A DNA stretch of 64,000 bases from the sequence record KX377933; one strand, given 5' to 3'. Positions 3,657-29,459 of this stretch are shown piece by piece (within the stretch, counting starts at the first letter, position 1; the number at the start of each line of letters is the position of its first letter). Source of the stretch: Escherichia phage vB_EcoM_Alf5. The notes beneath the pieces are model-generated. The model was not told the DNA's origin, searched no databases, and saw only the letters and a list, made by a program, of their open reading frames with translations. Position numbers and translations under genes: made by a program.

Positions 3657-4205
3657 ATGAAGAAATTGATTCTAGGTTTGTGCTTAATGTTTACAGCACA
3701 CTTATCTTATGCAGTTGACTGCCCAGAGCTATCAATTAGCCAAAAAGTAAACATGTTAAAAGCTTACCAGTATGGTGAGAATAACATGGGTAAAGGTTGG
3801 GGTATCACTCTAGCTGCTATAGCCTTACAAGAGTCAGAGTTAGGTCTGAAGGTAGAGAATAAAAAGACACATGATTATGGTATCTTCCAGAATCACTTGA
3901 AGACTGTTGTAAAGCGTAACAAAATCAGTCCTAATGTGGCTAAAAAGAAACTCTTAAAAGATTTTGACTATGCTGCAAAGGAAACACACAAAGAGCTTGA
4001 ATTTTGGACTAAGGTACACGGTCAACCAAAGTCAAAGAAGACTTTACAAAAAGTTTTAGCATCATATAATGCTGGGTATTCATACAAAATTCCTAAAGCT
4101 AAGAAATACTCTCAAGATGTCTATAACAATATGAAAGTCATCGCTCAATGTGAATTTGCAACAAACATTTCTAAGGTAAATCATGAAAAAATTAAGAAAG
4201 TTTGA
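3657..4205 (+). CDS. lytic transglycosylase (SLT domain) with signal peptide
   Basis: N-terminal hydrophobic signal; ES (ALQESELGL), GIFQ and AYNAG-like (ASYNAGYSY) motifs of family 1 transglycosylases. Confidence 0.55.
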   Translation: MKKLILGLCLMFTAHLSYAVDCPELSISQKVNMLKAYQYGENNMGKGWGITLAAIALQESELGLKVENKKTHDYGIFQNHLKTVVKRNKISPNVAKKKLLKDFDYAAKETHKELEFWTKVHGQPKSKKTLQKVLASYNAGYSYKIPKAKKYSQDVYNNMKVIAQCEFATNISKVNHEKIKKV

Positions 4206-4878
4206 TGAAGTATTGTGCCATGCTTATGACTTACATCCTCATGAGTTAGGTCTTGATTCCTGTGTATGGACTCCAGAACAGTGCAGGGATTTTGAAGACA
4301 CCGCAAGAGAAGTTGTATGTTCACTTGAAGAGTTCCACACATCAGAACCAATTGTGAACGTTGTGGACAAAGAGACTGGGCAATCCATAGGTGTAAAACG
4401 TGATAGTTTAGTCATAGTCAACAAAGACCTTGTAGAGAAAGGTAATCTTATCTTAGCAGATATTGATGGAGTTCTTACAAATTTTAATCACGAAGATTGT
4501 TCAACGGAATTGACTGATGGTTCATTTTCACAGTACACTAATCTTCTTGACTCTGTAAGAGCAAAACCAACGTATGTTTTCAATATCATTGATGCAATTG
4601 CTAATCATGCTGCCGTTGGACTCTTGACAGCGAGAGGCGAATCTCAGAGAATACCTACTGAGATGTTTTTAAGGCATAACACAGAGCATGATTATATGCT
4701 TTTTATGCGTGGTTTTGGAACTAACTCTATAAGTGCAGAAAGTTTGAAAGTGAGGATGATTCAGTCTTGCATTCTGCCTTACTTTAATATAGTATGTTTT
4801 ATAGAAGATACAGAGAAGAATGTGCAGAAGGTGAATAGAATCCTTCCACACATCAAAACCATGTTAGTTAAACATTGA
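4183..4878 (+). CDS. hypothetical protein, possible HAD-like hydrolase
   Basis: 231-aa ORF; LILADIDGVLT resembles HAD motif I but lies ~95 aa from N-terminus; weak. Confidence 0.4.
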   Translation: MKKLRKFDEVLCHAYDLHPHELGLDSCVWTPEQCRDFEDTAREVVCSLEEFHTSEPIVNVVDKETGQSIGVKRDSLVIVNKDLVEKGNLILADIDGVLTNFNHEDCSTELTDGSFSQYTNLLDSVRAKPTYVFNIIDAIANHAAVGLLTARGESQRIPTEMFLRHNTEHDYMLFMRGFGTNSISAESLKVRMIQSCILPYFNIVCFIEDTEKNVQKVNRILPHIKTMLVKH

Positions 4879-4888
4879 GAGAAAACTT

Positions 4889-5353
4889 ATGAACAATATC
4901 ATTACGGTAGCACTGGACGTTACGGCAAACAAATCTGAAGTAGTTCGTAACATTATCAAGAACAACTTTGAGGGTAAAATCTTTCGTGCTGTCAACGTAA
5001 AAGCAGACGGTAACATCAGAGAGTATCGTGCTCTTTTGAATGTTAAGAAACACGTCAAAGGTGCTGGTTCAACGACTGCACACAAAGAAAACCTGATGAC
5101 TATCTATGATATGGGTATGGCTTCAGAGTTAGGTGCTGAAGGTATCGTTAAAGAAGGTGCTCCGTATCGCTCTTTCAATCTGGAAACTGCTCTCATGCTT
5201 TCCTTTACAAGTGGTTCTAAAACAACTACTTATCTCTTTACTGATGCTGCAACGGTATCTGCTATCAAGGATAACGCTATCAAAGCTGGGGTAGCTGCTG
5301 CTGCAAAAGCTTCTTCGATGGCTGCAAATGTCCTTGCTAAAGTCCTCGGTTAA
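4889..5353 (+). CDS. hypothetical protein
   Basis: 154-aa ORF with RBS-like spacing, followed by terminator. Confidence 0.45.
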   Translation: MNNIITVALDVTANKSEVVRNIIKNNFEGKIFRAVNVKADGNIREYRALLNVKKHVKGAGSTTAHKENLMTIYDMGMASELGAEGIVKEGAPYRSFNLETALMLSFTSGSKTTTYLFTDAATVSAIKDNAIKAGVAAAAKASSMAANVLAKVLG

Positions 5354-5365
5354 GGTTAAGATACA

Positions 5366-22547: not shown

Positions 22548-22626
22548 TTTTAAAAGGTGTTGACAGACTCTACAAAGTTGCTCTAAAGTCTGTCACATCA
22601 AACAACAATGAGAGAAGAGAGTAAAT

Positions 22627-24042
22627 ATGAGCGAGTTATTTAAACATGCACACCTTCATGCAGGTCGGACTGAAAATGGTGCTGTAAACCATACTTCATC
22701 AATGTCTGCTCTGGTAGACTTTTACAAAGCCGCTGGCTCAAGCCGTAGCAATGTAGAAATCTTACCAGACCTGTTCTACAAAGCTTTGCATGAGGATGTT
22801 GATGTTGCAGTTCGTATTTTACTGCATATGCGAGATGTACGAGAAGGTATGGGTGAGCGTAAAGCTTTCCGAACTGTTTTACTTCAAGCAATTGAAGATA
22901 AAGTTTTAGAGCCTACACAGGTTCTTCGCATTATGGATAAGATTGCAGAACTTGGTCGTTTTGATGACTTCAAAATCTTCGTAGGTACTCGTTTCGAGAC
23001 GGATGCCTTCAAACATTTAGAGGCAGCATTACTAGACCCTGCAACAGCAGGTTTGGCAGCTAAGTGGTTACCACGAGTCAAACCACGTCATAAGCAGTTT
23101 GTAAAACGTTTCTGCAAGTTTGCCAACTTGAGTGAGAAAGAGTACCGCACACTGTTATCTGCACTGTCTGATACGGTTGAGCAAAAAATCTCTGCTAATG
23201 AGTTTGGTAAGATTGACTACAGCAAGATTCCTTCACTCGCTGCTGCACGTTACCAAAAGCTCTTTAACCGCAAAGATGGAGAACGTTACAAAGCTTACAT
23301 CGAATCACTCTCAAAGGGTGAGTCTAAGATTAACGCTGGTGCTGTTTATCCATACGATGTGATTAAGTCTATCAAGCATGGTAATGCAGATGTTGCCAAT
23401 GAGCAGTGGAAAGCACTACCAAACTGGATGGCAGAAGGTGAGAACATCTTGTGTATGACTGATGTTTCAAGCTCAATGTCTTGGGTGAATCTTGGTTCAA
23501 TCACTGCCCTTGATATTGGTGTATCACTTGCCTTGTATGTAGCAGAACGCAATACAGGTTGCTTTAAGGATGAGTTGATGGTTTATTCAACAAACCCTCA
23601 CTTCATTGAACTGAGTGGTGATTTACGAAACCGTCATCGTCAGGTGATGCGACACGTTGAATATGGCTCAACTAACTTACAGGCAGCTTTTGACCGCATT
23701 CTTGAGGTAGGTAAAAGAAACAACTTGACTCAGAAAGATATGCCAAGTAAGCTTATCATCTTCTCTGATATGGAGTTCAATCAGGTTGATGGAGCTAATG
23801 GTCGTACAAACTTTGAAGCAATTCAGAGTAAGTACAAAAAAGCTGGATATGAGATGCCACAACTGGTATTCTGGTACTTAGCAAACCGTAATGGTACTTG
23901 CGAAGTGTCTGTTAAGGATAACGGTGTAGCAATGGTATCTGGTTTCTCTCCAGCCACTTTAAAAGCTTTGCTTGGTGGTGAGAAGTTTGACCCAATCAGT
24001 GTAATGCTCAAAGCAGTAATGATTGACCGTTACATCTGGTAA
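22627..24042 (+). CDS. Ro60/Rsr-like protein (TROVE-like N-terminal region plus vWA domain with MIDAS)
   Basis: 471 aa; LCMTDVSSSM (DxSxS), downstream GSTNL and IIFSDMEF fit a vWA MIDAS; ERKAFRTVL resembles Ro60 TROVE as recalled. Confidence 0.55.
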   Translation: MSELFKHAHLHAGRTENGAVNHTSSMSALVDFYKAAGSSRSNVEILPDLFYKALHEDVDVAVRILLHMRDVREGMGERKAFRTVLLQAIEDKVLEPTQVLRIMDKIAELGRFDDFKIFVGTRFETDAFKHLEAALLDPATAGLAAKWLPRVKPRHKQFVKRFCKFANLSEKEYRTLLSALSDTVEQKISANEFGKIDYSKIPSLAAARYQKLFNRKDGERYKAYIESLSKGESKINAGAVYPYDVIKSIKHGNADVANEQWKALPNWMAEGENILCMTDVSSSMSWVNLGSITALDIGVSLALYVAERNTGCFKDELMVYSTNPHFIELSGDLRNRHRQVMRHVEYGSTNLQAAFDRILEVGKRNNLTQKDMPSKLIIFSDMEFNQVDGANGRTNFEAIQSKYKKAGYEMPQLVFWYLANRNGTCEVSVKDNGVAMVSGFSPATLKALLGGEKFDPISVMLKAVMIDRYIW

Positions 24043-24056
24043 AAAGTTTTAAAAAG

Positions 24057-24095
24057 GGTATTGACAATGTGTTTGATACCCTTTAATATGTTCTA
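24057..24095 (+). promoter_or_regulatory. sigma70-like promoter upstream of tRNA island
   Basis: TTGACA, 17-bp spacer, TAATAT. Confidence 0.45.
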
Positions 24096-24207
24096 CATAG
24101 AAACGAAATGAGAGCTTTTCTAAGATACTGAAAAATATTTTAAAAAAGTTCTTGACAATCACTAAAAAATAATGTTAAAGTGGTTACATAGAGTTTGAAA
24201 AGTTTAT

Positions 24208-24284
24208 CTCTGTTTAGCTCAGCTTGGTAGAGCGTTCCGTTTGGGGCGGTAAGGCCGGAGGTTCAAGTCCTCCAACAGAGACCA
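24208..24284 (+). tRNA. tRNA, anticodon TGG (Pro)
   Basis: 7-bp acceptor ctctgtt/aacagag, D-stem gctc/gagc, T-arm ggagg-ttcaagt-cctcc, encoded CCA. Confidence 0.55.
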
Positions 24285-24291
24285 AATTAAT

Positions 24292-24369
24292 GTTCCAGTA
24301 GACAAAATGGTAAAGTCACCACTCTTTCAAAGTGGATATTTGAGGGTTCAAATCCCTTCTGGAACGCCA
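24292..24369 (+). tRNA. tRNA, anticodon TTC (Glu)
   Basis: acceptor gttccag/ctggaac, anticodon arm ccact-ctttcaa-agtgg, T-loop ttcaaat, CCA. Confidence 0.6.
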
Positions 24370-24375
24370 GTTTTG

Positions 24376-24452
24376 ACAGAAGACCAATTACAGCAAACTT
24401 AATCTACTCATCTGACACGAAATCGGACAAAGAAGATATTTGGTCTGGTCAT
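24376..24452 (+). ncRNA. repeat module A: conserved stem-forming motif pair
   Basis: agaccaa (24381-87) pairs with ttggtct (24440-46); shared flanks acagaagacc and ggtctggt. Confidence 0.35.
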
Positions 24453-24459
24453 TAAGAAT

Positions 24460-24536
24460 TGCGGGTATAGAGAAAGGGCGTCTCACATGTCTCATTAGCA
24501 TGGTATCGGCAGGTTCGACTCCTGCACCCGCCTCCA
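24460..24536 (+). tRNA. tRNA, anticodon CAT (Met)
   Basis: D-stem gaga/tctc, anticodon arm catgt-ctcatta-gcatg, T-arm gcagg-ttcgact-cctgc; 1:72 appears unpaired. Confidence 0.5.
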
Positions 24537-24541
24537 AATTT

Positions 24542-24610
24542 ACAGAAGACCGTTTACAGCAATATTTATTAAATTTTTAGCGGAAAAATTGAAAGATACG
24601 GTCTGGTAAT
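24542..24610 (+). ncRNA. repeat module B
   Basis: agaccgt (24547-53) pairs with acggtct (24598-604); same acagaagacc...ttacagcaa / ggtctggt flanks. Confidence 0.35.
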
Positions 24611-24619
24611 ACTAAACAT

Positions 24620-24696
24620 GGTTAGGAAGCACATAAGGTATGTGCGGTCGCCTGTTAAGCGAATGGCACAGGGTTCGAATCCCTGACTAACCGCCA
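24620..24696 (+). tRNA. tRNA, anticodon GTT (Asn)
   Basis: D-stem gcac/gtgc, anticodon loop ctgttaa, T-arm caggg-ttcgaat-ccctg, CCA. Confidence 0.55.
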
Positions 24697-24765
24697 AATT
24701 TAGGAGAGAAGCGATTGCTCACCGATTTGTAAGGTGCAAGTCCTTAGCCTGAATAGAAATTAAAT

Positions 24766-24853
24766 GTGTCGTTATCCCGTAGATGGTAGCGGTGGGGACT
24801 GTAAATCCCTTGTCATTGAGACTCGGTAGGTTCGACTCCTACACGGCACACCA
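24766..24853 (+). tRNA. tRNA, anticodon GTA (Tyr), long variable arm
   Basis: acceptor gtgtcgt/acggcac, anticodon loop ctgtaaa, 15-nt variable arm, T-arm gtagg-ttcgact-cctac. Confidence 0.6.
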
Positions 24854-24858
24854 ATAAA

Positions 24859-24936
24859 GGTTATGTAGTTTAATTTGGTTAAAATACTCCCCTGTCACGG
24901 GAGATGATGAGGGTTCAAATCCCTTCGTAGCCGCCA
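24859..24936 (+). tRNA. tRNA, anticodon GTC (Asp)
   Basis: anticodon arm ctccc-ctgtcac-gggag, T-loop ttcaaat, CCA. Confidence 0.6.
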
Positions 24937-24963
24937 ATTTTGAGAGGACTATTTAGCCCCTCC

Positions 24964-24995
24964 CTTAAAGAGTTCTTACGAGTATTCTTTAAAGG
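24964..24995 (+). promoter_or_regulatory. hairpin with conserved loop GTTCTTACGAGTAT
   Basis: cttaaagag-gttcttacgagtat-tctttaaag; a second copy with the same loop occurs at 28346-28377. Confidence 0.4.
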
Positions 24996-24996
24996 A

Positions 24997-25072
24997 GCAG
25001 AAGACCAAATTCAGCAAGAACGTATGAAATTTCAAGCCAATTTAATTTTGAAAATTTAAACTTGGTCTGGCT
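24997..25072 (+). ncRNA. repeat module C
   Basis: agaccaa (25002-08) pairs with ttggtct (25062-68); degenerate copy of modules A/B. Confidence 0.3.
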
Positions 25073-25081
25073 CAACAAATT

Positions 25082-25218
25082 TACAGAAGACCGTTTACAG
25101 CAAAACTTAAACAATCTATTTCTCCGGTAAAGAAAAGGCGAAGGTTCGATTCCTTCACTCGGCAGATGTCGAGTTGGTGTAATGGTAGCACTTAAGATGA
25201 TAAACAACGGTCTGGTAA
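25082..25218 (+). ncRNA. candidate Y RNA-like ncRNA with permuted tRNA-like domain
   Basis: 8-bp stem agaccgtt (25088-95) / aacggtct (25206-13) encloses T-arm gaagg-ttcgatt-ccttc, hairpin actcggc-agat-gtcgagt and D-arm gtgt-aatggta-gcac. Confidence 0.45.
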
Positions 25219-25358
25219 TTATCTTTGTAGATAAGTTATTAAGCTTACCTGTGAGTATGCGACCACAAAGGGTGAAAGGGTAAATTCTAGATTTAAACCC
25301 AAAAAGGCACATCGCTACAGACCTTAAGCAAGTCTGGGTAGCTTATCTACAAAGATAA
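25219..25358 (+). repeat. 17-bp perfect inverted repeat enclosing ~105 nt
   Basis: ttatctttgtagataag (25219-35) and cttatctacaaagataa (25342-58) are exact reverse complements. Confidence 0.6.
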
Positions 25359-25364
25359 TTTAAT

Positions 25365-25440
25365 GGAAGTGTAGCAGAATGGTGATGCGGCAGACTTTTA
25401 ATCTGACAGGCGATGGGTTCGAATCCCTCCACTTCTACCA
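25365..25440 (+). tRNA. tRNA, anticodon TTT (Lys)
   Basis: acceptor ggaagtg/cacttct, anticodon arm (g)caga-cttttaa-tctg, T-loop ttcgaat, CCA. Confidence 0.5.
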
Positions 25441-25444
25441 ATAT

Positions 25445-25521
25445 GGTTCAGTCGCAGATAAGGTAATGCAAGGGTCTCATAAGCCCTATGAATGTGGGTT
25501 CGATTCCCATCTGAACCTCCA
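25445..25521 (+). tRNA. tRNA, anticodon CAT (Met or Ile2)
   Basis: acceptor ggttcag/ctgaacc, anticodon arm agggt-ctcataa-gccct, T-loop ttcgatt, CCA. Confidence 0.5.
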
Positions 25522-25598
25522 AGCTGGTATAGTTAAGAAGGTTATAACACTCCCCTGATAAGGGAACATCGGTGGTTCGATTCCACCTACCAGTACCA
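25522..25598 (+). tRNA. tRNA, anticodon GAT (Ile)
   Basis: D-stem gtta/taac, anticodon loop ctgataa, T-arm ggtgg-ttcgatt-ccacc, CCA. Confidence 0.55.
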
Positions 25599-25606
25599 AT
25601 TTCAAT

Positions 25607-25645
25607 AAAGTTGTTGACATTGAGATGTGACTACTTTATAGTAAC
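25607..25645 (+). promoter_or_regulatory. sigma70-like promoter inside tRNA island
   Basis: aaagTTGTTGACA, 17-bp spacer, TATAGT. Confidence 0.45.
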
Positions 25646-25846
25646 CTTAGTTTTCGTTGCGTAGCGTCTATTTTGCAAATTTAAAATAAATGCAAACGAC
25701 AATGTTTTTCTGGCAGTAGCTTGATAGGCTAAACACCAGTGAGGTCTTCCAATCCCTCATCAAAGAATTTGGCGTACTAGCCCACGGTATGATTAATAAG
25801 GTGGGCATCTTTAAGGGCTTTCTAAGAGAGTCTTTAAAGATAATTA

Positions 25847-25928
25847 CGGGGCGTATCTCAGCGGTCTTCTAAACCGCCGTTAACCGAGTAAGTGGAGTAT
25901 GCGGGTTCGAGTCCTGCCGCCTCGACCA
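25847..25928 (+). tRNA. atypical tRNA-like element, anticodon-like loop TCT (Arg?)
   Basis: 7-bp acceptor cggggcg/cgcctcg and T-arm present, perfect hairpin gcggt-cttctaa-accgc, but no canonical D-arm; 23 nt before T-arm. Confidence 0.3.
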
Positions 25929-25942
25929 ATTTTGGAGAAATC

Positions 25943-26290
25943 ATGAAAACTTGTATTAGGTGCAAACTTAGCAAGGATGAAAATGATTTCTACATGAAAG
26001 ATGGTAGGAGGACTCATTCATACTGTAAAAAGTGTGTTAATGAGCAAACCATAGAAAGACAAAGAGCACTTAAACTCTCAGCTATTGAGTACAAAGGTGG
26101 GGTTTGTCATGATTGTGGTAAAAAGTATCATCCAGCAGTGTATGACTTCCATCATTTGAATCCTTCAGATAAAGATTTTAACATTGGTCATAGGAAAAGC
26201 CTTAAGTTCTCTCAAGAACTAAAAGATGAACTTGACAAATGTGTTTTGCTATGTTCAAATTGCCATAGGGTAAGACATGCAAAGTATTAG
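25943..26290 (+). CDS. HNH homing endonuclease
   Basis: CxxC...HHLNPSDKDFNIGH...CSNCH motifs; ATG at 25943 with GGAG RBS; track start 25892 lies inside the tRNA-like element. Confidence 0.65.
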   Translation: MKTCIRCKLSKDENDFYMKDGRRTHSYCKKCVNEQTIERQRALKLSAIEYKGGVCHDCGKKYHPAVYDFHHLNPSDKDFNIGHRKSLKFSQELKDELDKCVLLCSNCHRVRHAKY

Positions 26291-26427
26291 TTAGCAGATT
26301 ACTTAGACGACCTTAGCGGGTCTTCCTGTAGGGAGGTGGTCTGTATCTCATGTTTTCCAGAACATGTAAATAATCTGAGAAGGGGCTTTACAGTGTTGAG
26401 ATAATACGGTAAGCTTCGAATTATAGT

Positions 26428-26510
26428 ATGGGACGATGTTAAGACTCTAAGGCATGAGCAACGGCCTCCAAAACCGTTTCAAAGGGGTTCAACTCCTCCG
26501 TCCCATGCCA
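26428..26510 (+). tRNA. atypical tRNA, anticodon CCA (Trp?) with ~7 extra nt between acceptor and D-arm
   Basis: perfect acceptor atgggac/gtcccat, anticodon arm acggc-ctccaaa-accgt, T-loop ttcaact, CCA. Confidence 0.4.
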
Positions 26511-26523
26511 AAGTCTTATTAGG

Positions 26524-26611
26524 GGTAGGTAGCGGCTAATGGTAGCCAAACTGTCTTGAAAACAGTTGCCACTGTAGAGATACGGTGAGGGTTCGACTCC
26601 TTTACTTACCG
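26524..26611 (+). tRNA. tRNA, anticodon TGA (Ser), long variable arm
   Basis: anticodon arm actgt-cttgaaa-acagt, ~20-nt variable arm, T-arm gaggg-ttcgact-ccttt; no encoded CCA. Confidence 0.55.
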
Positions 26612-26868
26612 CCTAATAAGATTTAAAGCCAAGCTTCATTCGGATGTCGCTTTGGTATCCCGCGTGTATTGTCGTACACACTGATAAAACACCTAGTAGG
26701 TGTCACGGAGAAGAGATAATATCAAGCTCTCCAAAGGTTCTAGTCACCGGATTAAACAAGACTATGCAAAGACCTTTTTAGGTCTTTTTAGAGGGCTTCT
26801 AAGGTTATTACAGCTTGTTGTGGAACCTTGTTGCTTAGGTTCTTAGAAGTTCTCTAAAAAGATTTAAT

Positions 26869-26946
26869 GGGAGATTGACGGTAATTGGTAAACCTACCAT
26901 CCTTAGAAGTTGGTGTTTGAGGGTTCGAATCCCTTGTCTCCTACCA
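26869..26946 (+). tRNA. class-I tRNA, anticodon TAG (Leu by anticodon)
   Basis: acceptor gggagat/gtctcct, anticodon arm ccatc-cttagaa-gttgg, 5-nt variable loop, T-loop ttcgaat, A73, CCA. Confidence 0.45.
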
Positions 26947-26953
26947 AATTAAT

Positions 26954-27029
26954 GCAGGTGTAGCAAAATGGTTATGCGGCTGACTCTTAATCAGTAAGAC
27001 GACGGGTTCAATTCCCTCCACCTGTACCA
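26954..27029 (+). tRNA. tRNA, anticodon CTT (Lys)
   Basis: anticodon arm (g)ctga-ctcttaa-tcag(t), T-loop ttcaatt, CCA. Confidence 0.5.
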
Positions 27030-27034
27030 AAAAT

Positions 27035-27110
27035 GGGGTCATAGTTTATATGGTTAAAATTCGAGTTTTGCAAACTTGGGAACTGAGTTCAATTCTCAGT
27101 GACTCCACCA
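27035..27110 (+). tRNA. tRNA, anticodon TGC (Ala)
   Basis: acceptor ggggtca/tgactcc, anticodon arm cgagt-tttgcaa-acttg, T-arm ctgag-ttcaatt-ctcag, CCA. Confidence 0.6.
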
Positions 27111-27116
27111 ATTAGT

Positions 27117-27191
27117 GCATCCATAGTTTAAACGGGAAAATTACAGTCTTCCAAACTGAGGTTGAGGGTTCGATTCCCTCTGGATGCTCCA
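27117..27191 (+). tRNA. tRNA, anticodon TCC (Gly)
   Basis: perfect acceptor gcatcca/tggatgc, anticodon loop cttccaa, T-arm gaggg-ttcgatt-ccctc, CCA. Confidence 0.55.
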
Positions 27192-27197
27192 AATTAA

Positions 27198-27274
27198 TGC
27201 TCCTATCGTATAATCGGCTATTACGGTTGCCTTGTAAGCAACTTATCAGGGTTCGAATCCTTGTGGGAGCACCA
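27198..27274 (+). tRNA. tRNA, anticodon TGT (Thr)
   Basis: anticodon arm gttgc-cttgtaa-gcaac, T-loop ttcgaat, CCA. Confidence 0.6.
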
Positions 27275-27275
27275 A

Positions 27276-27368
27276 TTCAGAGGTCAAGTGAAAGACCGCT
27301 GGTGTCAACTGAAGACCGTAACAAATTCCACGGAGTTGAGTTAGCGGCACAACTTCAGACCTCTTTCA
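27276..27368 (+). ncRNA. structured non-tRNA spacer with paired repeat segments
   Basis: agaggtc/gacctct and ctgaag/cttcag complementarities; two GAAGACCG motifs. Confidence 0.3.
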
Positions 27369-27369
27369 C

Positions 27370-27444
27370 ACTCGCTTAGTTTATATGGTAAAACATCACC
27401 CTTACAAGATGAAGAAAAAGGTTCAAGTCCTTTAGTGAGTACCA
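27370..27444 (+). tRNA. tRNA, anticodon TAC (Val)
   Basis: D-stem gttt/aaac, anticodon arm tcacc-cttacaa-gatga (one mismatch), T-arm aaagg-ttcaagt-ccttt, CCA. Confidence 0.55.
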
Positions 27445-27445
27445 T

Positions 27446-27523
27446 GTTCCAGTATCCCAATTGGCAGAGGATGCAAGCTCAAACCTTGTATTAGTGACGG
27501 TTCGAATCCGTCTTGGAACACCA
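27446..27523 (+). tRNA. class-I tRNA, anticodon CAA (Leu by anticodon)
   Basis: acceptor gttccag/ttggaac, anticodon arm gcaag-ctcaaac-cttgt, short variable loop, T-arm gacgg-ttcgaat-ccgtc, A73, CCA. Confidence 0.5.
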
Positions 27524-27541
27524 ATTTAAAGAGGCTATTTA

Positions 27542-28099
27542 ATGAGATATTTGAAGTACGCTTCATGGATTTTCTTAGCTTTACTAGACCCAATTGCAGC
27601 AATCCTAGCAGTTATTTTAGCACCTTTCGTAGTTCCATTCTACAGTGAGAAGAAAGGACATCTACCTTTTGGATTCAGATGGATGGAGACATATGACAAC
27701 CCAATTGATGGTGATGAAGGTCACGTTAAAAGATGGGCTAAGATTAGAAAGATTGGTAAGCTGGGTGTCTACATGCAGAGAGTCGGATGGCTCTGGAGAA
27801 ACAAAGCTTATAACTTCTCTTACCATGTATTAGGAAGAGATGTAAAAGATGTTACTAAGTGGAAAGGTAATATCAACGTAAGTTCTGACCCCGAAGATAA
27901 TCAGACAGGTTATCTCCTAATGTGGAACAACAATGCTTGGGGATTATTCGCTTTTATTCCGTCAATTAAAGTCTTTGGTAAACAGTTTTACTGGAGAATT
28001 TATGTTGGATGGAAACTAAAAAGTGTTGTCCCAGAAGAAAGAGCATTCTCAAGGGAAAGAGTTATGTTGGCATTCTTTATTCATCCACTGAGAAAGTAA
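27542..28099 (+). CDS. hypothetical membrane protein inside tRNA island
   Basis: 185-aa ORF; N-terminal hydrophobic segment IFLALLDPIAAILAVILAPFVVPF; Trp-rich; AGAGG RBS. Confidence 0.5.
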   Translation: MRYLKYASWIFLALLDPIAAILAVILAPFVVPFYSEKKGHLPFGFRWMETYDNPIDGDEGHVKRWAKIRKIGKLGVYMQRVGWLWRNKAYNFSYHVLGRDVKDVTKWKGNINVSSDPEDNQTGYLLMWNNNAWGLFAFIPSIKVFGKQFYWRIYVGWKLKSVVPEERAFSRERVMLAFFIHPLRK

Positions 28100-28107
28100 A
28101 GATTTAA

Positions 28108-28183
28108 AGGGGATTAGTTTACAAGGTTAAAACCTCGGTCTTTGAAATCGAAGAAGTTGGTTCAATTCCAACATCCCCCGCCA
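28108..28183 (+). tRNA. tRNA, anticodon TTG (Gln)
   Basis: D-stem gttt/aaac, anticodon arm tcggt-ctttgaa-atcga, T-arm gttgg-ttcaatt-ccaac, CCA; 1:72 A-C mismatch. Confidence 0.55.
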
Positions 28184-28185
28184 AT

Positions 28186-28264
28186 GCTCCATTACTCCAA
28201 TTGGCAGAGAGGCCAGACTTAAAATCTGTGTTATGTATCGGTTCGAATCCGATATGGAGTACCA
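28186..28264 (+). tRNA. class-I tRNA, anticodon TAA (Leu by anticodon)
   Basis: acceptor gctccat/atggagt, anticodon arm (c)caga-cttaaaa-tctg, T-arm atcgg-ttcgaat-ccgat, A73, CCA. Confidence 0.45.
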
Positions 28265-28269
28265 ATTTT

Positions 28270-28345
28270 AGCGGTATAGCATAACTGGCAATGCAGCAGT
28301 CTCTGAAGCTGTCCTATTAAGGTTCAAATCCTTATGCCGCTGCCA
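28270..28345 (+). tRNA. tRNA, anticodon CTG (Gln)
   Basis: D-stem gcat/atgc, anticodon arm gcagt-ctctgaa-gctgt, T-arm taagg-ttcaaat-cctta, CCA. Confidence 0.55.
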
Positions 28346-28377
28346 CTTCTAAGGGTTCTTACGAGAATCCTTAAATG
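28346..28377 (+). promoter_or_regulatory. second copy of hairpin with loop GTTCTTACGAGAAT
   Basis: ctaagg-gttcttacgagaat-ccttaa directly after tRNA 3' end. Confidence 0.4.
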
Positions 28378-28452
28378 TGGCCTTATCATAAATGGTAATG
28401 ACCCATGCTGTGAACATGGTCTATACGGGTTCGACTCCCGTAGGTCACCCCA
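28377..28452 (+). tRNA. tRNA, anticodon GTG (His)
   Basis: anticodon arm ccatg-ctgtgaa-catgg, T-arm acggg-ttcgact-cccgt, C73, CCA. Confidence 0.6.
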
Positions 28453-28457
28453 ATTTA

Positions 28458-28534
28458 TAGTCCAAGTAGCTTATATGGTTAAAGCGCGTGTCTGAAAAAC
28501 ATGAGAAGAGGGTTCAAATCCCACTGGACTACCA
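28458..28534 (+). tRNA. tRNA, anticodon GAA (Phe)
   Basis: D-stem gctt/aagc, anticodon arm cgtgt-ctgaaaa-acatg, T-loop ttcaaat; acceptor register ambiguous by 2 nt. Confidence 0.5.
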
Positions 28535-28550
28535 ATTTCAAAGGTGCTTA

Positions 28551-29285
28551 ATGAAAGAGATGACAGAACAAGGTAAGGAGATTTTTAATCTCTTAAAAAC
28601 CGGTAAAGGGTTTTCTAACCCACTTATTACTGGTGCAGCAGTTCTCGGTGGAACCGTAGCTGCCTCTACATCACTTGTAAGCTCTATTAGCTCTGTAACA
28701 GACCCTACAATGAAGGAGAAGCTTGTTGCTGCTGGACTTACAACAGTCCTTCTAAACAGCTTTACAACAAGCCTGACAAGCACTACAGCAACTACTAAGA
28801 CCCTAACAGACTATGGTCAAAAGTCTATTGATGAGTTTTCATCACGTATGCAGGTAGCAAAGGGTTATTCCAATGTTATGGGTGCAGCAGGAGAACAAGT
28901 TGGTTGTACACCATTCAGTGGTATTATGGGTGTTGCTACAGAGTATGGTCAAAAAGCTATTGACATGATTAACAGCACACTAGACAGTGTTAACGGTGTG
29001 TTAAGTGACTTACAAGACGCTATTGATAAGGGTCTTGATACTGTTTCTGATTTAGCTAATCAGGCTGTTAGTAAGATTAATGAAGGTATCTCAAAGATTA
29101 CAGCTTATGCAGATGAAGTTGTGCAGATGATTGAAGAAGAAGCTGCCCTTATTACAGAGTACCTTAAAACTAATATCAATGGGTTCTTAGCAGGTATCTT
29201 ACCAGACTGGTTTGATGATGCTTGTAAAACTGGTGTGATTGATACTATTGCAACACCAGAAATGAAGAGCGCATTACAGAAATAA
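28551..29285 (+). CDS. hypothetical Ser/Thr-rich protein inside tRNA island
   Basis: ATG at 28551 after AAAGG RBS; track start 28488 lies inside the preceding tRNA. Confidence 0.5.
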   Translation: MKEMTEQGKEIFNLLKTGKGFSNPLITGAAVLGGTVAASTSLVSSISSVTDPTMKEKLVAAGLTTVLLNSFTTSLTSTTATTKTLTDYGQKSIDEFSSRMQVAKGYSNVMGAAGEQVGCTPFSGIMGVATEYGQKAIDMINSTLDSVNGVLSDLQDAIDKGLDTVSDLANQAVSKINEGISKITAYADEVVQMIEEEAALITEYLKTNINGFLAGILPDWFDDACKTGVIDTIATPEMKSALQK

Positions 29286-29286
29286 C

Positions 29287-29379
29287 GGAAGATTAACCCT
29301 AAAAGGTAAGGGAGCAGTTTGCTAAACTGCCAGTAGCTGAGAAATCGGTGTACCAGTTCAAGTCTGGTATCTTCCTCCA
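29287..29379 (+). tRNA. tRNA, anticodon GCT (Ser), long variable arm
   Basis: perfect acceptor ggaagat/atcttcc, anticodon arm gcagt-ttgctaa-actgc, ~21-nt variable arm, T-arm accag-ttcaagt-ctggt, CCA. Confidence 0.6.
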
Positions 29380-29383
29380 ATTT

Positions 29384-29459
29384 GAATCCGTGACAGAAAT
29401 GGATATGTGCCTGTCTGCAAAACAGGTTTATAAGGGTTCAAGTCCCTTCGGATTCTCCA
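29384..29459 (+). tRNA. tRNA, anticodon GCA (Cys)
   Basis: perfect acceptor gaatccg/cggattc, anticodon arm cctgt-ctgcaaa-acagg, T-arm aaggg-ttcaagt-ccctt, CCA. Confidence 0.6.

Follow-up and report, generated by a model that had tools for sequence, protein, structure and literature searches.

Ro60/Y-RNA particles occur in animals, some bacteria, and a few phages with canonical TROVE proteins. In such particles, Y RNA sits on the outside of the Ro60 ring, and the central cavity takes up the 3' ends of misfolded RNA; YrlA is a stable Ro60-bound transcript that carries tRNA modifications. YrlA RNAs adjoin TROVE proteins in 254 bacteria and 22 phages, and in their tRNA-like part a T arm comes first, then a closed acceptor-like hairpin, then a D arm (Chen et al. 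2014, PMC4201824). For Thermus phage phiLo, the Ro60 (phiRo60) has been solved with two CGAA-type Y-like RNAs, Yrl1 and Yrl2 (PDB 9KOP and 9L5Y), and complexes with the host PNPase were shown (NAR 2025, PMC12135203). In Bas63 (Escherichia phage JohannRWettstein), the bas63_0130 product gp130 has a Ro60-like fold; its deletion gave small plaques on a Ppl-carrying host, which were rescued by complementation, and gp130 alone improved T7 on Ppl hosts (10.1101/2024.10.10.617714). The same PhageMaP preprint proposes that the protein alone inhibits the DNA-degrading Ppl, and guesses that some annotated tRNA genes are Y RNAs, with none identified (10.1101/2024.10.10.617714). The present study concerns the corresponding locus of Escherichia phage vB_EcoM_Alf5 (sequence record KX377933), of which a stretch of 64,000 nucleotides (nt), hereafter the window, was analyzed. 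In this window, an open reading frame (ORF; 22627-24042, plus strand) encoding a Ro60-like protein immediately precedes an island of 24 tRNA genes (24208-29459, every tRNA on the plus strand), and four structured RNA elements lie among the first of these tRNAs.

The locus is proposed to represent a divergent phage Ro60-type ribonucleoprotein system, in which a Ro60-type ring would bind a structural handle common to the four RNAs and use their inserts as effector modules steering RNA decay or surveillance, thereby aiding counter-defence; we regard this reading as probable. The Ro60 fold was known before on the protein side, while the RNA side appears to be new: the literature searched contained no description of the handle RNAs, which may have been described elsewhere. 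The initial annotation of this DNA, made from the letters alone, had read the region as a candidate Ro60/Y RNA-like module, and this reading is supported, as the handle family accompanies the protein family across phyla. That annotation also suggested a role in the repair of damaged phage tRNAs or in RNA quality control, which would be a further possibility; countering Ppl is the sole experimental phenotype known of the ortholog, and the protein alone suffices for it. The protein gene and the candidate RNAs are as follows, with bit scores and E values from covariance model (CM) R1, which was built only from the window and six annotated phages (alignment A3).

22627..24042, plus strand: gene of the Ro60-like protein, 471 amino acids (aa), ortholog of Bas63 gp130
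23461..23475, plus strand: codons of the DxSxS motif (D279-V-S281-S-S283) of the MIDAS (metal ion-dependent adhesion site), from alignment A1 of 48 homologs and hhalign
24374..24451, plus strand: Y-like RNA 1, from its fold and CM R1 (32.9 bits, E 1.6e-5)
24540..24609, plus strand: Y-like RNA 2, from its fold (z -2.1) and CM R1 (38.9 bits, E 5.6e-7)
24995..25073, plus strand: Y-like RNA 3, from its fold (z -2.0) and CM R1 (24.7 bits, E 1.7e-3)
25081..25218, plus strand: Y-like RNA 4, from its fold, the RNAalifold consensus of seven Felixounavirus variants, and ARAGORN after re-permutation

For the protein, the initial annotation had recognized a 471-aa ORF with a von Willebrand-type (vWA) domain carrying a DxSxS MIDAS (LCMTDVSSSM) and an N-terminus resembling TROVE. 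The ORF and the MIDAS were both confirmed, and the N-terminal resemblance was recovered at the fold level only (Foldseek), not by sequence models (hidden Markov models, HMMs, and hhalign). The AlphaFold2 model was confident (predicted local distance difference test 88.9, predicted template modelling score 0.89), and every one of its first twelve Foldseek matches against the PDB was a Ro60 or Rsr structure at full length, among them the Ro60 of Thermus phage phiLo (E 9e-9, template modelling score 0.66). In the predicted layout, about aa 1-265 form an alpha-helical ring of HEAT-type repeats at the N-terminus, which is closed by a vWA domain spanning about aa 270-455 at the C-terminus. This domain is of the Ro60 type with a MIDAS (DxSxS...T...D), and the residues D279, S281, S283, T349, and D381 were invariant in all 48 homologs of alignment A1, indicating a full MIDAS site. 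Profile-profile comparison by hhalign with a 30-sequence Ro60 alignment matched residues 235-443 to the Ro60 vWA domain (probability 89%, E 2e-6) and aligned the MIDAS stretch with the DVSGSM of canonical Ro60. An hhalign comparison of the family with a single Ro60 sequence was also tried and set aside, having matched the MIDAS strand alone.

By sequence, the family stands apart from described Ro60 proteins. The Pfam matches of the window protein were DUF2828 (1.8e-29) and DUF7788 (1.7e-43), with no others, and it remained below the threshold of Pfam vWA_Ro60 (PF25045), for which weak matches were found in 10 of the 48 members (best 4.7e-4). None of the 48 members matched the TROVE HMM at E up to 10, and PDB sequence searches with the protein and with the 48-sequence profile returned nothing relevant. 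As a positive control, Bxz1 gp220, a canonical mycobacteriophage Ro protein, matched TROVE at 9.4e-50 and vWA_Ro60 at 4e-54. In PHROGs, the window protein falls at full length into phrog_850, labelled 'RNA-binding protein'. Its homologs form more than 2,262 clusters and were found in 708 of 50,697 phage records (~1.4%), including phages of Vibrio, Aeromonas, Campylobacter, Listeria, Staphylococcus, Bacillus, and Enterococcus, as well as cluster L mycobacteriophages, whose records label the homolog 'Ro-like RNA binding protein'. On the predicted structure, the protein is thus Ro60-like by fold and architecture, yet it belongs to a separate sequence family.

Regarding the RNAs, the motif AGAAGACC-N3-CAGCAA occurs in four copies in the 64 kb, all on the plus strand between 24378 and 25103, as opposed to 0.00 copies expected from shuffles, and each copy is followed 35-102 nt later by GGTCTGG. 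All four elements share one fold, in which an outer stem of 4 bp is separated by an AGA/G internal loop from an inner stem of 7-8 bp, beyond which single-stranded UUACAGCAA opens a large loop, so their ends are paired into a stem whose internal loop precedes a large variable region. RNA 1, which fills the spacer between tRNA-Glu (24292-24369) and tRNA-Met (24460-24536), has its outer stem at 24374-24377/24448-24451, the handle stem AGACCAA (24381-24387)/UUGGUCU (24440-24446), and the motif UUACAGCAA at 24388-24396. RNA 2 fills the next spacer, between the same tRNA-Met and tRNA-Asn (24620-24696), with the handle stem AGACCGU (24547-24553)/ACGGUCU (24598-24604). RNAs 3 and 4 come after tRNA-Asp; the former has the handle stem AGACCAA (25002-25008)/UUGGUCU (25062-25068) and the motif variant AUUCAGCAA, and the latter has the handle AGACCGUU (25088-25095)/AACGGUCU (25206-25213) and the motif UACAGCAA (25096-25103). 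The initial annotation had placed a single Y-RNA-like element about 1 kb downstream of the gene on the same strand; that element holds at 25081-25218, with its stem, internal loop, and structured insert, and is one of four.

A search of the window with the handle CM detected three copies (E 6e-7 to 2e-3) and nothing else significant in 64 kb. RNA 4 gave a partial 5' match (E 0.32), because the CM cannot span its insert of ~100 nt. The elements lie 332-1176 nt past the stop codon of the Ro60-like gene on the plus strand, i.e., within ~4 kb of the gene and on its strand, as YrlA RNAs do. All four were kept in 14 of 16 Felixounavirus loci, whereas one locus has three and one contig ends after the first; RNA 1 was kept in all of them. 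In the records inspected, the four elements are unannotated, and small minus-strand ORFs are drawn over them. The 'tRNA-OTHER/pseudo' features of public records, considered as candidates for Y-like RNAs, turned out to be tRNA-Tyr and tRNA-Asp. Rfam searches of the whole window at the gathering score revealed no YrlA or Y_RNA match, and the sole GGCGAAG in RNA 4, located at the junction of the variable loop and T stem, reads GGAGAAG in two related loci (L011 and L018) and is therefore not conserved.

The handle accompanies the protein family well beyond Felixounavirus. On the gene strand in every case, it adjoins homologs 29-52% identical from phages infecting Klebsiella, Aeromonas, Cronobacter, Campylobacter, Mycobacterium, and Listeria. 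Klebsiella phage KP13-16, whose protein is 52% identical, has at least five elements 3' of the gene, all with TTACAGCAA and with the stems GAAGAT/ATCTTC, AGAAGAA/TTCTTCT, AGAAGCT/AGCTTCT, GTAGTT/AACTAC, and AGAAGGT/ACCTTCT; three of these elements have a T, an acceptor, and a D arm. When AGACC...GGTCT was looked for in this phage, nothing was found, since the stem sequence differs there, which led to the finding of covariation. Handle copies beside the gene number seven in Aeromonas phage LAh_6, three in Mycobacterium phage Gabriela (with UG...CA-G in place of AG...CU-G), and three in Listeria phage P100, and the same design flanks the gene in Cronobacter phage LPCS28 and Campylobacter phage F352; no clear handle was found in Vibrio phage CZ01 (L002).

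The distance from the stem base to CAGCAA was 10 nt in 133 of 137 handle matches. In the consensus of 59 distinct handles, pair 1 is A-U (49) or U-A (10), pair 2 is G-C (59), pair 3 is A-U (30) or G-C (27), and pairs 4-7 are of any Watson-Crick type; U occupies position -2 in 53 of 59, the sequence is G-poor after CAGCAA and A-rich before the 3' strand, and an unpaired G directly follows the stem. Double-change cells in the handle stem numbered 169, compared with 53 in shuffles. As a MAFFT alignment of the natural short elements (A2) misplaced several 3' strands, fixed-register 52-nt handle constructs were used for alignments A3 and A4. These data bear on the suggestion that the repeat is a DNA-level signal, either a phage promoter with TTTACA as the -35 box or a protein-binding repeat. 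One copy does form a weak promoter-like site (TTTACA-16-AATATT at 24539, 9/12 matches), but TTTACA is not conserved outside Felixounavirus, the conserved part is a stem of changing sequence that keeps its complementarity, with G-U pairs workable on the plus strand only, and the consensus scan of the window found no excess of promoter-like sites (20 found, 16.1 expected), making this suggestion exceedingly improbable.

To place the linkage of handle and protein on a quantitative footing, 80 further loci were taken from IMG/VR by protein similarity, comprising 15 Felixounaviruses and 65 independent loci (proteins 39-46% identical; 565 kb in total). Over all loci, the matches to a sequence-plus-pairing descriptor numbered 148 on the strand of the gene and 2 on its complement. 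In the independent set, 112 CAGCAA sites lie within 800 nt of the gene, and 49 of them have the stem, as against 33 of 2,240 (1.5%) when the downstream sequence was shuffled and 2 of 184 for the opposite strand; 42 of the 65 loci were handle-positive on the gene strand. CM R1 gave 48 matches in the independent set at E up to 1, of which 47 are on the gene strand, and each of the 32 matches with E below 0.01 flanks the gene. In the 50-kb Bxz1 locus, CM R1 found no handle, and the Rfam YrlA model, used as a positive control, found the RNA upstream of gp220 (32.5 bits, E 2.8e-4). Each protein class therefore has its own RNA handle, given that CM R1 is empty in Bxz1 and YrlA is empty in the window.

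It could be argued that the protein is an anti-defence factor acting through protein contacts of its vWA/MIDAS, and that the RNA structures are unlinked spacer or processing elements of the tRNA operon. MIDAS domains are classic protein-ligand sites, two elements exactly occupy inter-tRNA spacers, and gp130 alone counters Ppl both in Bas63 complementation and in T7, which has none of the RNAs. However, tRNA genes lie within 4 kb in just 17 of the 65 independent loci and are absent there from the other 48, yet 42 of the 65 are handle-positive, so the handle follows the protein rather than tRNA islands. Conversely, the canonical-Ro60 Bxz1 locus has tRNAs without the handle. Moreover, the constant 10-nt geometry and the invariant nucleotides point to recognition by a specific partner, and an unlinked origin of the RNAs is accordingly judged improbable.

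The insert of RNA 4 is itself built from the arms of a tRNA, as listed below.

25119..25135, plus strand: anticodon-arm-like or variable-arm hairpin, UUUCU-CCGGUAA-AGAAA, 5 bp with a 7-nt loop, from the fold, ARAGORN, and RNAalifold
25140..25156, plus strand: T arm, GAAGG-UUCGAUU-CCUUC, from the fold, ARAGORN, RNAalifold, and a local tRNA-model match (25107-25157, 22 bits)
25157..25174, plus strand: closed acceptor-stem hairpin, ACUCGGC-AGAU-GUCGAGU, 7 bp, from the fold and ARAGORN
25177..25191, plus strand: D arm, GUGU-AAUGGUA-GCAC, with G18-G19 equivalents, from the fold, ARAGORN, and RNAalifold

The arm order, namely T arm, closed acceptor-like hairpin, and D arm, is that of YrlA. Three pairs of the acceptor hairpin change on both sides within the genus (RNAalifold consensus), and the Felixounavirus variants of this hairpin, though entirely different in sequence, are all paired (ACUCGGC/GUCGAGU, ACACG/CGUGU, and ACCCUUC/GAAGGGU). 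ARAGORN draws a 74-nt cloverleaf from RNA 4 once the tetraloop is opened and the two handle linkers are removed; simple rotation of the insert with the linkers retained gave no ARAGORN tRNA. As judged from its sequence, RNA 4 is a complete tRNA circularly permuted at the junction of the D arm and anticodon arm, with its acceptor ends sealed. Among the loci, 27 of 45 distinct long inserts have a T loop, mostly in the YrlA order T, acceptor hairpin, and D, and ARAGORN found a tRNA in 8 of 32 rotated long inserts and in 0 of the unrotated or shuffled ones.

With every tRNA arm present in RNA 4, and with homing endonucleases and tRNA fragments also contained in the tRNA islands of these phages, the elements might be taken for decaying or rearranged tRNA genes, duplicated spacers, or split or permuted tRNAs that mature to a functional tRNA. 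This is considered very unlikely, as RNAs 1-3 have no tRNA part yet share the handle with RNA 4, the handle, conserved and covarying, recurs in phages from four bacterial phyla, and the acceptor hairpin stays closed and intact through compensatory changes. In addition, bacteria are not known to have a pathway that re-joins a tRNA permuted at position 26/27.

Other connectivities of the same parts were observed elsewhere. In KP13-16 (L001, 7945-8060) and LAh_6 (L003, ~1530-1640), tRNA-like genes have the handle between the D arm and anticodon arm as a closed hairpin composed of the 3' strand, a 3-nt loop, the 5' strand, and ACAGCA; the KP13-16 element is an ARAGORN tRNA only after deletion of the 37-nt insert, and the LAh_6 element was judged by eye. 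This connectivity is opposite to that of the permuted RNA 4, and the two sequences together suggest one common three-dimensional arrangement. A third topology was found in L069 (6192-6315) and L074 (6329-6428), where the arms follow the normal order D, anticodon, T and the handle stem replaces the acceptor stem. Furthermore, long handle-RNAs with a conserved non-tRNA insert module (e.g., GAACCUUUCCGGAGGGGAAAGCAAAAACUCGCC and AACCUUGUCAGGGUGGCAGGCAAGCAAAAUCAGUCGCCAC) occur in four loci of unrelated metagenomic phages (L027 2102, L029 3707, L056 3632, and L084 3615).

Some handles lie at the start of the protein gene. In KVP40-like Vibrio phages (L024 and L025, 3959-4012), the start codon is in the 3' strand of the handle and the Shine-Dalgarno sequence in its loop; a handle is located just upstream of the gene in seven loci (L032, L077, L039, L056, L080, L084, and L003), many handles are 20-140 nt upstream of it, and in many other loci GAAAGGA(G) and then the start codon come immediately after the conserved G. 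In LAh_6 (L003), the annotated start of the 'RNA-binding protein' coding sequence (3875-5362) is 126 nt upstream of the start of similarity (4001) and overlaps two handle RNAs (3838-3903 and 3903-3963), and the start codon is probably mis-called. Translational operators of RNA-binding proteins usually lie over the start site in this way, and these handles, covering the start codon and Shine-Dalgarno sequence, look like a possible autoregulatory operator; the layout is therefore a hint that the handle is the putative binding site of the protein. On such a view, the handle would mainly be a cis operator, bound by the protein on its own mRNA or operon transcript to autoregulate translation, and the island copies would be processing by-products or titrating decoys rather than trans-acting Y-like RNAs. 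This is unlikely, as the 5' leader of the gene in the window has no handle, and all four copies are more than 330 nt past its stop codon, with two promoter-like sites and two tRNAs in between. Besides, a phage may have up to seven copies, and many inserts are elaborate conserved tRNA mimics that an operator would not need. An operator would still require binding of the handle by the protein, and to that extent it overlaps with the ribonucleoprotein proposed here.

In the proposed ribonucleoprotein system, the four RNAs (~70-140 nt) and the first tRNAs of the island would be co-transcribed, with the sites at ~24061 and 24152 as the probable promoters. Their ends would be made by tRNA processing, with RNase P acting on the tRNA downstream and 3' trimming on the one upstream, which is probable because two RNAs exactly fill inter-tRNA spacers. 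The handle would serve as the binding site of the protein, corresponding to the conserved helix by which Y RNAs bind Ro, and the variable insert as the effector module. The insert of RNA 4, which is predicted not to be aminoacylatable, could, as has been proposed for YrlA, interact with enzymes that bind tRNA, with nucleases, or with exoribonucleases of the host, and the particle would likely act in the infected cell to control RNA decay or surveillance and so contribute to counter-defence. Alternatively, the RNAs may act as regulators of the protein, have some other function, or not be needed in the conditions of the Ppl assay.

Several points weigh against this interpretation. The fold, the RNA family, its covariation, and the genomic linkage are observed, and from the locus we infer the expression and processing of the RNAs, their binding by the protein, and their function. 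Most clearly, gp130 alone, from a plasmid or in T7, restores plaquing on Ppl hosts (preprint), so the anti-Ppl activity needs no phage RNAs. For the protein, the TROVE (PF05731) HMM gave no match at E up to 1 and hhalign left the N-terminal 234 residues unaligned with the Ro60 alignment, and the homology of the ring consequently rests on fold and architecture. On the RNA side, Rfam searches of 24000-26600 at E up to 10 found only tRNAs and noise, with no YrlA or Y_RNA, and the GNCGAAN0-1G motif is missing near the 5' end, where the motif is U(A/U)CAGCAA. Under the descriptor used, 23 of the 65 independent loci had no handle within 800 nt. Finally, the covariation alignment was built from matches selected for pairing, which inflates the pairing percentage; the statistical weight is carried by the shuffle, strand, and position controls, which address this selection bias indirectly.

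The region is 99.2% identical to that of Escherichia phage pinkbiff, and at least 80% of it is covered by 245 phage records, mostly of the Felix O1 type (Felixounavirus). The locus is flanked by leftward genes upstream and by terminase and portal genes downstream. Three candidate promoters were recorded around the gene, as follows.

22560..22589, plus strand: sigma-70-like promoter, TTGACA-18-TAAAGT, ~35 nt upstream of the Ro60-like ORF (10/12 consensus matches; a consensus match only)
24061-24089, plus strand: second promoter-like site, from the consensus scan
24152..24181, plus strand: sigma-70-like promoter, TTGACA-18-TAAAGT with TG, from the consensus scan (a consensus match only)

The promoter at 24152..24181 is likely the start of the tRNA/Y-like RNA polycistron, to judge from its match to the consensus. 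Directly 3' of the stop codon of the Ro60-like gene, a 12-bp hairpin (24053-24084, plus strand) holds the -35 box (TTGACA) of the first downstream promoter-like site, so that gene termination and tRNA operon initiation may be coupled. A highly stable multibranched structure (25219-25364, plus strand), located between Y-like RNA 4 and tRNA-Lys, is closed by a 22-bp stem (minimum free energy -46.4 kcal/mol, z -5.5); it is 94-100% conserved in close Felixounaviruses and absent from a more distant clade (L018-L021), has no Rfam match and no handle, and is overlain by small minus-strand ORFs in public records. The spacer between tRNA-Asn and tRNA-Tyr (24697-24765, plus strand) is also structured (z -2.6), with the T-loop-like GGUGCAAGUCC and without a handle, and a 12-bp hairpin, likewise without a handle, lies within 24958-24997 (plus strand) just 5' of Y-like RNA 3. 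Further downstream, a tRNA at 25847-25925 (plus strand) was found by the Rfam tRNA model (31.7 bits) and missed by ARAGORN; it overlaps the start of an HNH endonuclease ORF (25892-26290), and its Bas63 equivalent is annotated as tRNA-Arg (codon recognized: AGA).

If the proposed system is real, it would be a second, much commoner phage lineage of the Ro60/Y-RNA architecture. It would offer concrete Y RNA candidates where the 2024 genetic screen could only guess, beside a partner protein that defeats Ppl, and its simple invariant handle would make cognate RNAs easy to find and to mutate. The occurrence of the handle in three connectivities, i.e., around a permuted tRNA, inside a normal tRNA, and over the start codon of the protein gene, would amount to a natural experiment on the spatial arrangement of ring, handle, and tRNA body. 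Moreover, dozens of 'hypothetical' minus-strand ORFs in phage tRNA islands probably overlie RNA genes. DUF2828 carriers also include Felix O1-like, KVP40-like, P100/A511-like, and Campylobacter phages, and a tentative, still doubtful extension is that DUF2828 rings and handle RNAs form a distinct, widespread phage ribonucleoprotein, whose interchangeable inserts (permuted tRNAs, tRNAs into which a handle is inserted, and further conserved modules) would act as decoys or tethers to immune effectors or tRNA fragments. The targets would then be host RNA- or nucleotide-targeting immune effectors, or tRNA fragments, and the particle would be an RNA-programmed anti-defence machine, not housekeeping quality control.

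Compared with the bacterial Rsr and YrlA/YrlB systems (Salmonella Typhimurium and Mycobacterium smegmatis) and with Bxz1 gp220, the window system is alike in having a ring protein with a vWA/MIDAS domain and several small RNAs within a few kb on the same strand. Like the YrlA RNAs, its RNAs are modular, combining a terminal stem that carries a protein-site motif with a variable module, which in one of them is a tRNA mimic. It differs in that the window protein has no TROVE or vWA_Ro60 match, whereas Bxz1 gp220 has both, and in that the motif, which stands at a constant 10 nt from an AG...CU-G stem, reads UACAGCAA instead of GNCGAAN0-1G; the Rfam YrlA model finds the Bxz1 RNA and not those of the window. 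Unlike YrlA, the window RNAs are embedded in a tRNA polycistron, and their tRNA mimic keeps an anticodon-arm-like hairpin, resulting in a complete permuted cloverleaf. By its sequences, the window system is thus not a canonical Ro60/Y-RNA member. Circularly permuted tRNA genes are known from Cyanidioschyzon merolae, where the arms come in rotated order and a short loop in the primary transcript connects the acceptor ends; both features are seen in RNA 4. The genes of C. merolae mature to normal tRNAs via a eukaryotic/archaeal splicing-type pathway and are broken elsewhere, whereas the D/anticodon break in RNA 4 is bridged by a conserved protein-type handle common to tRNA-free RNAs. As for the phage systems, phiRo60 is deposited as a TROVE-domain protein with CGAA-motif RNAs, whereas the window family has neither, and PDB sequence searches found no sequence-level similarity between phiRo60 and this family. 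The direct ortholog is that of Bas63, with 96.6% DNA identity over the gene-plus-RNA region and the same position ahead of the tRNA island. In contrast to the annotated tRNA genes guessed at in that phage, the candidates identified here are four unannotated spacer elements with a family-wide handle.

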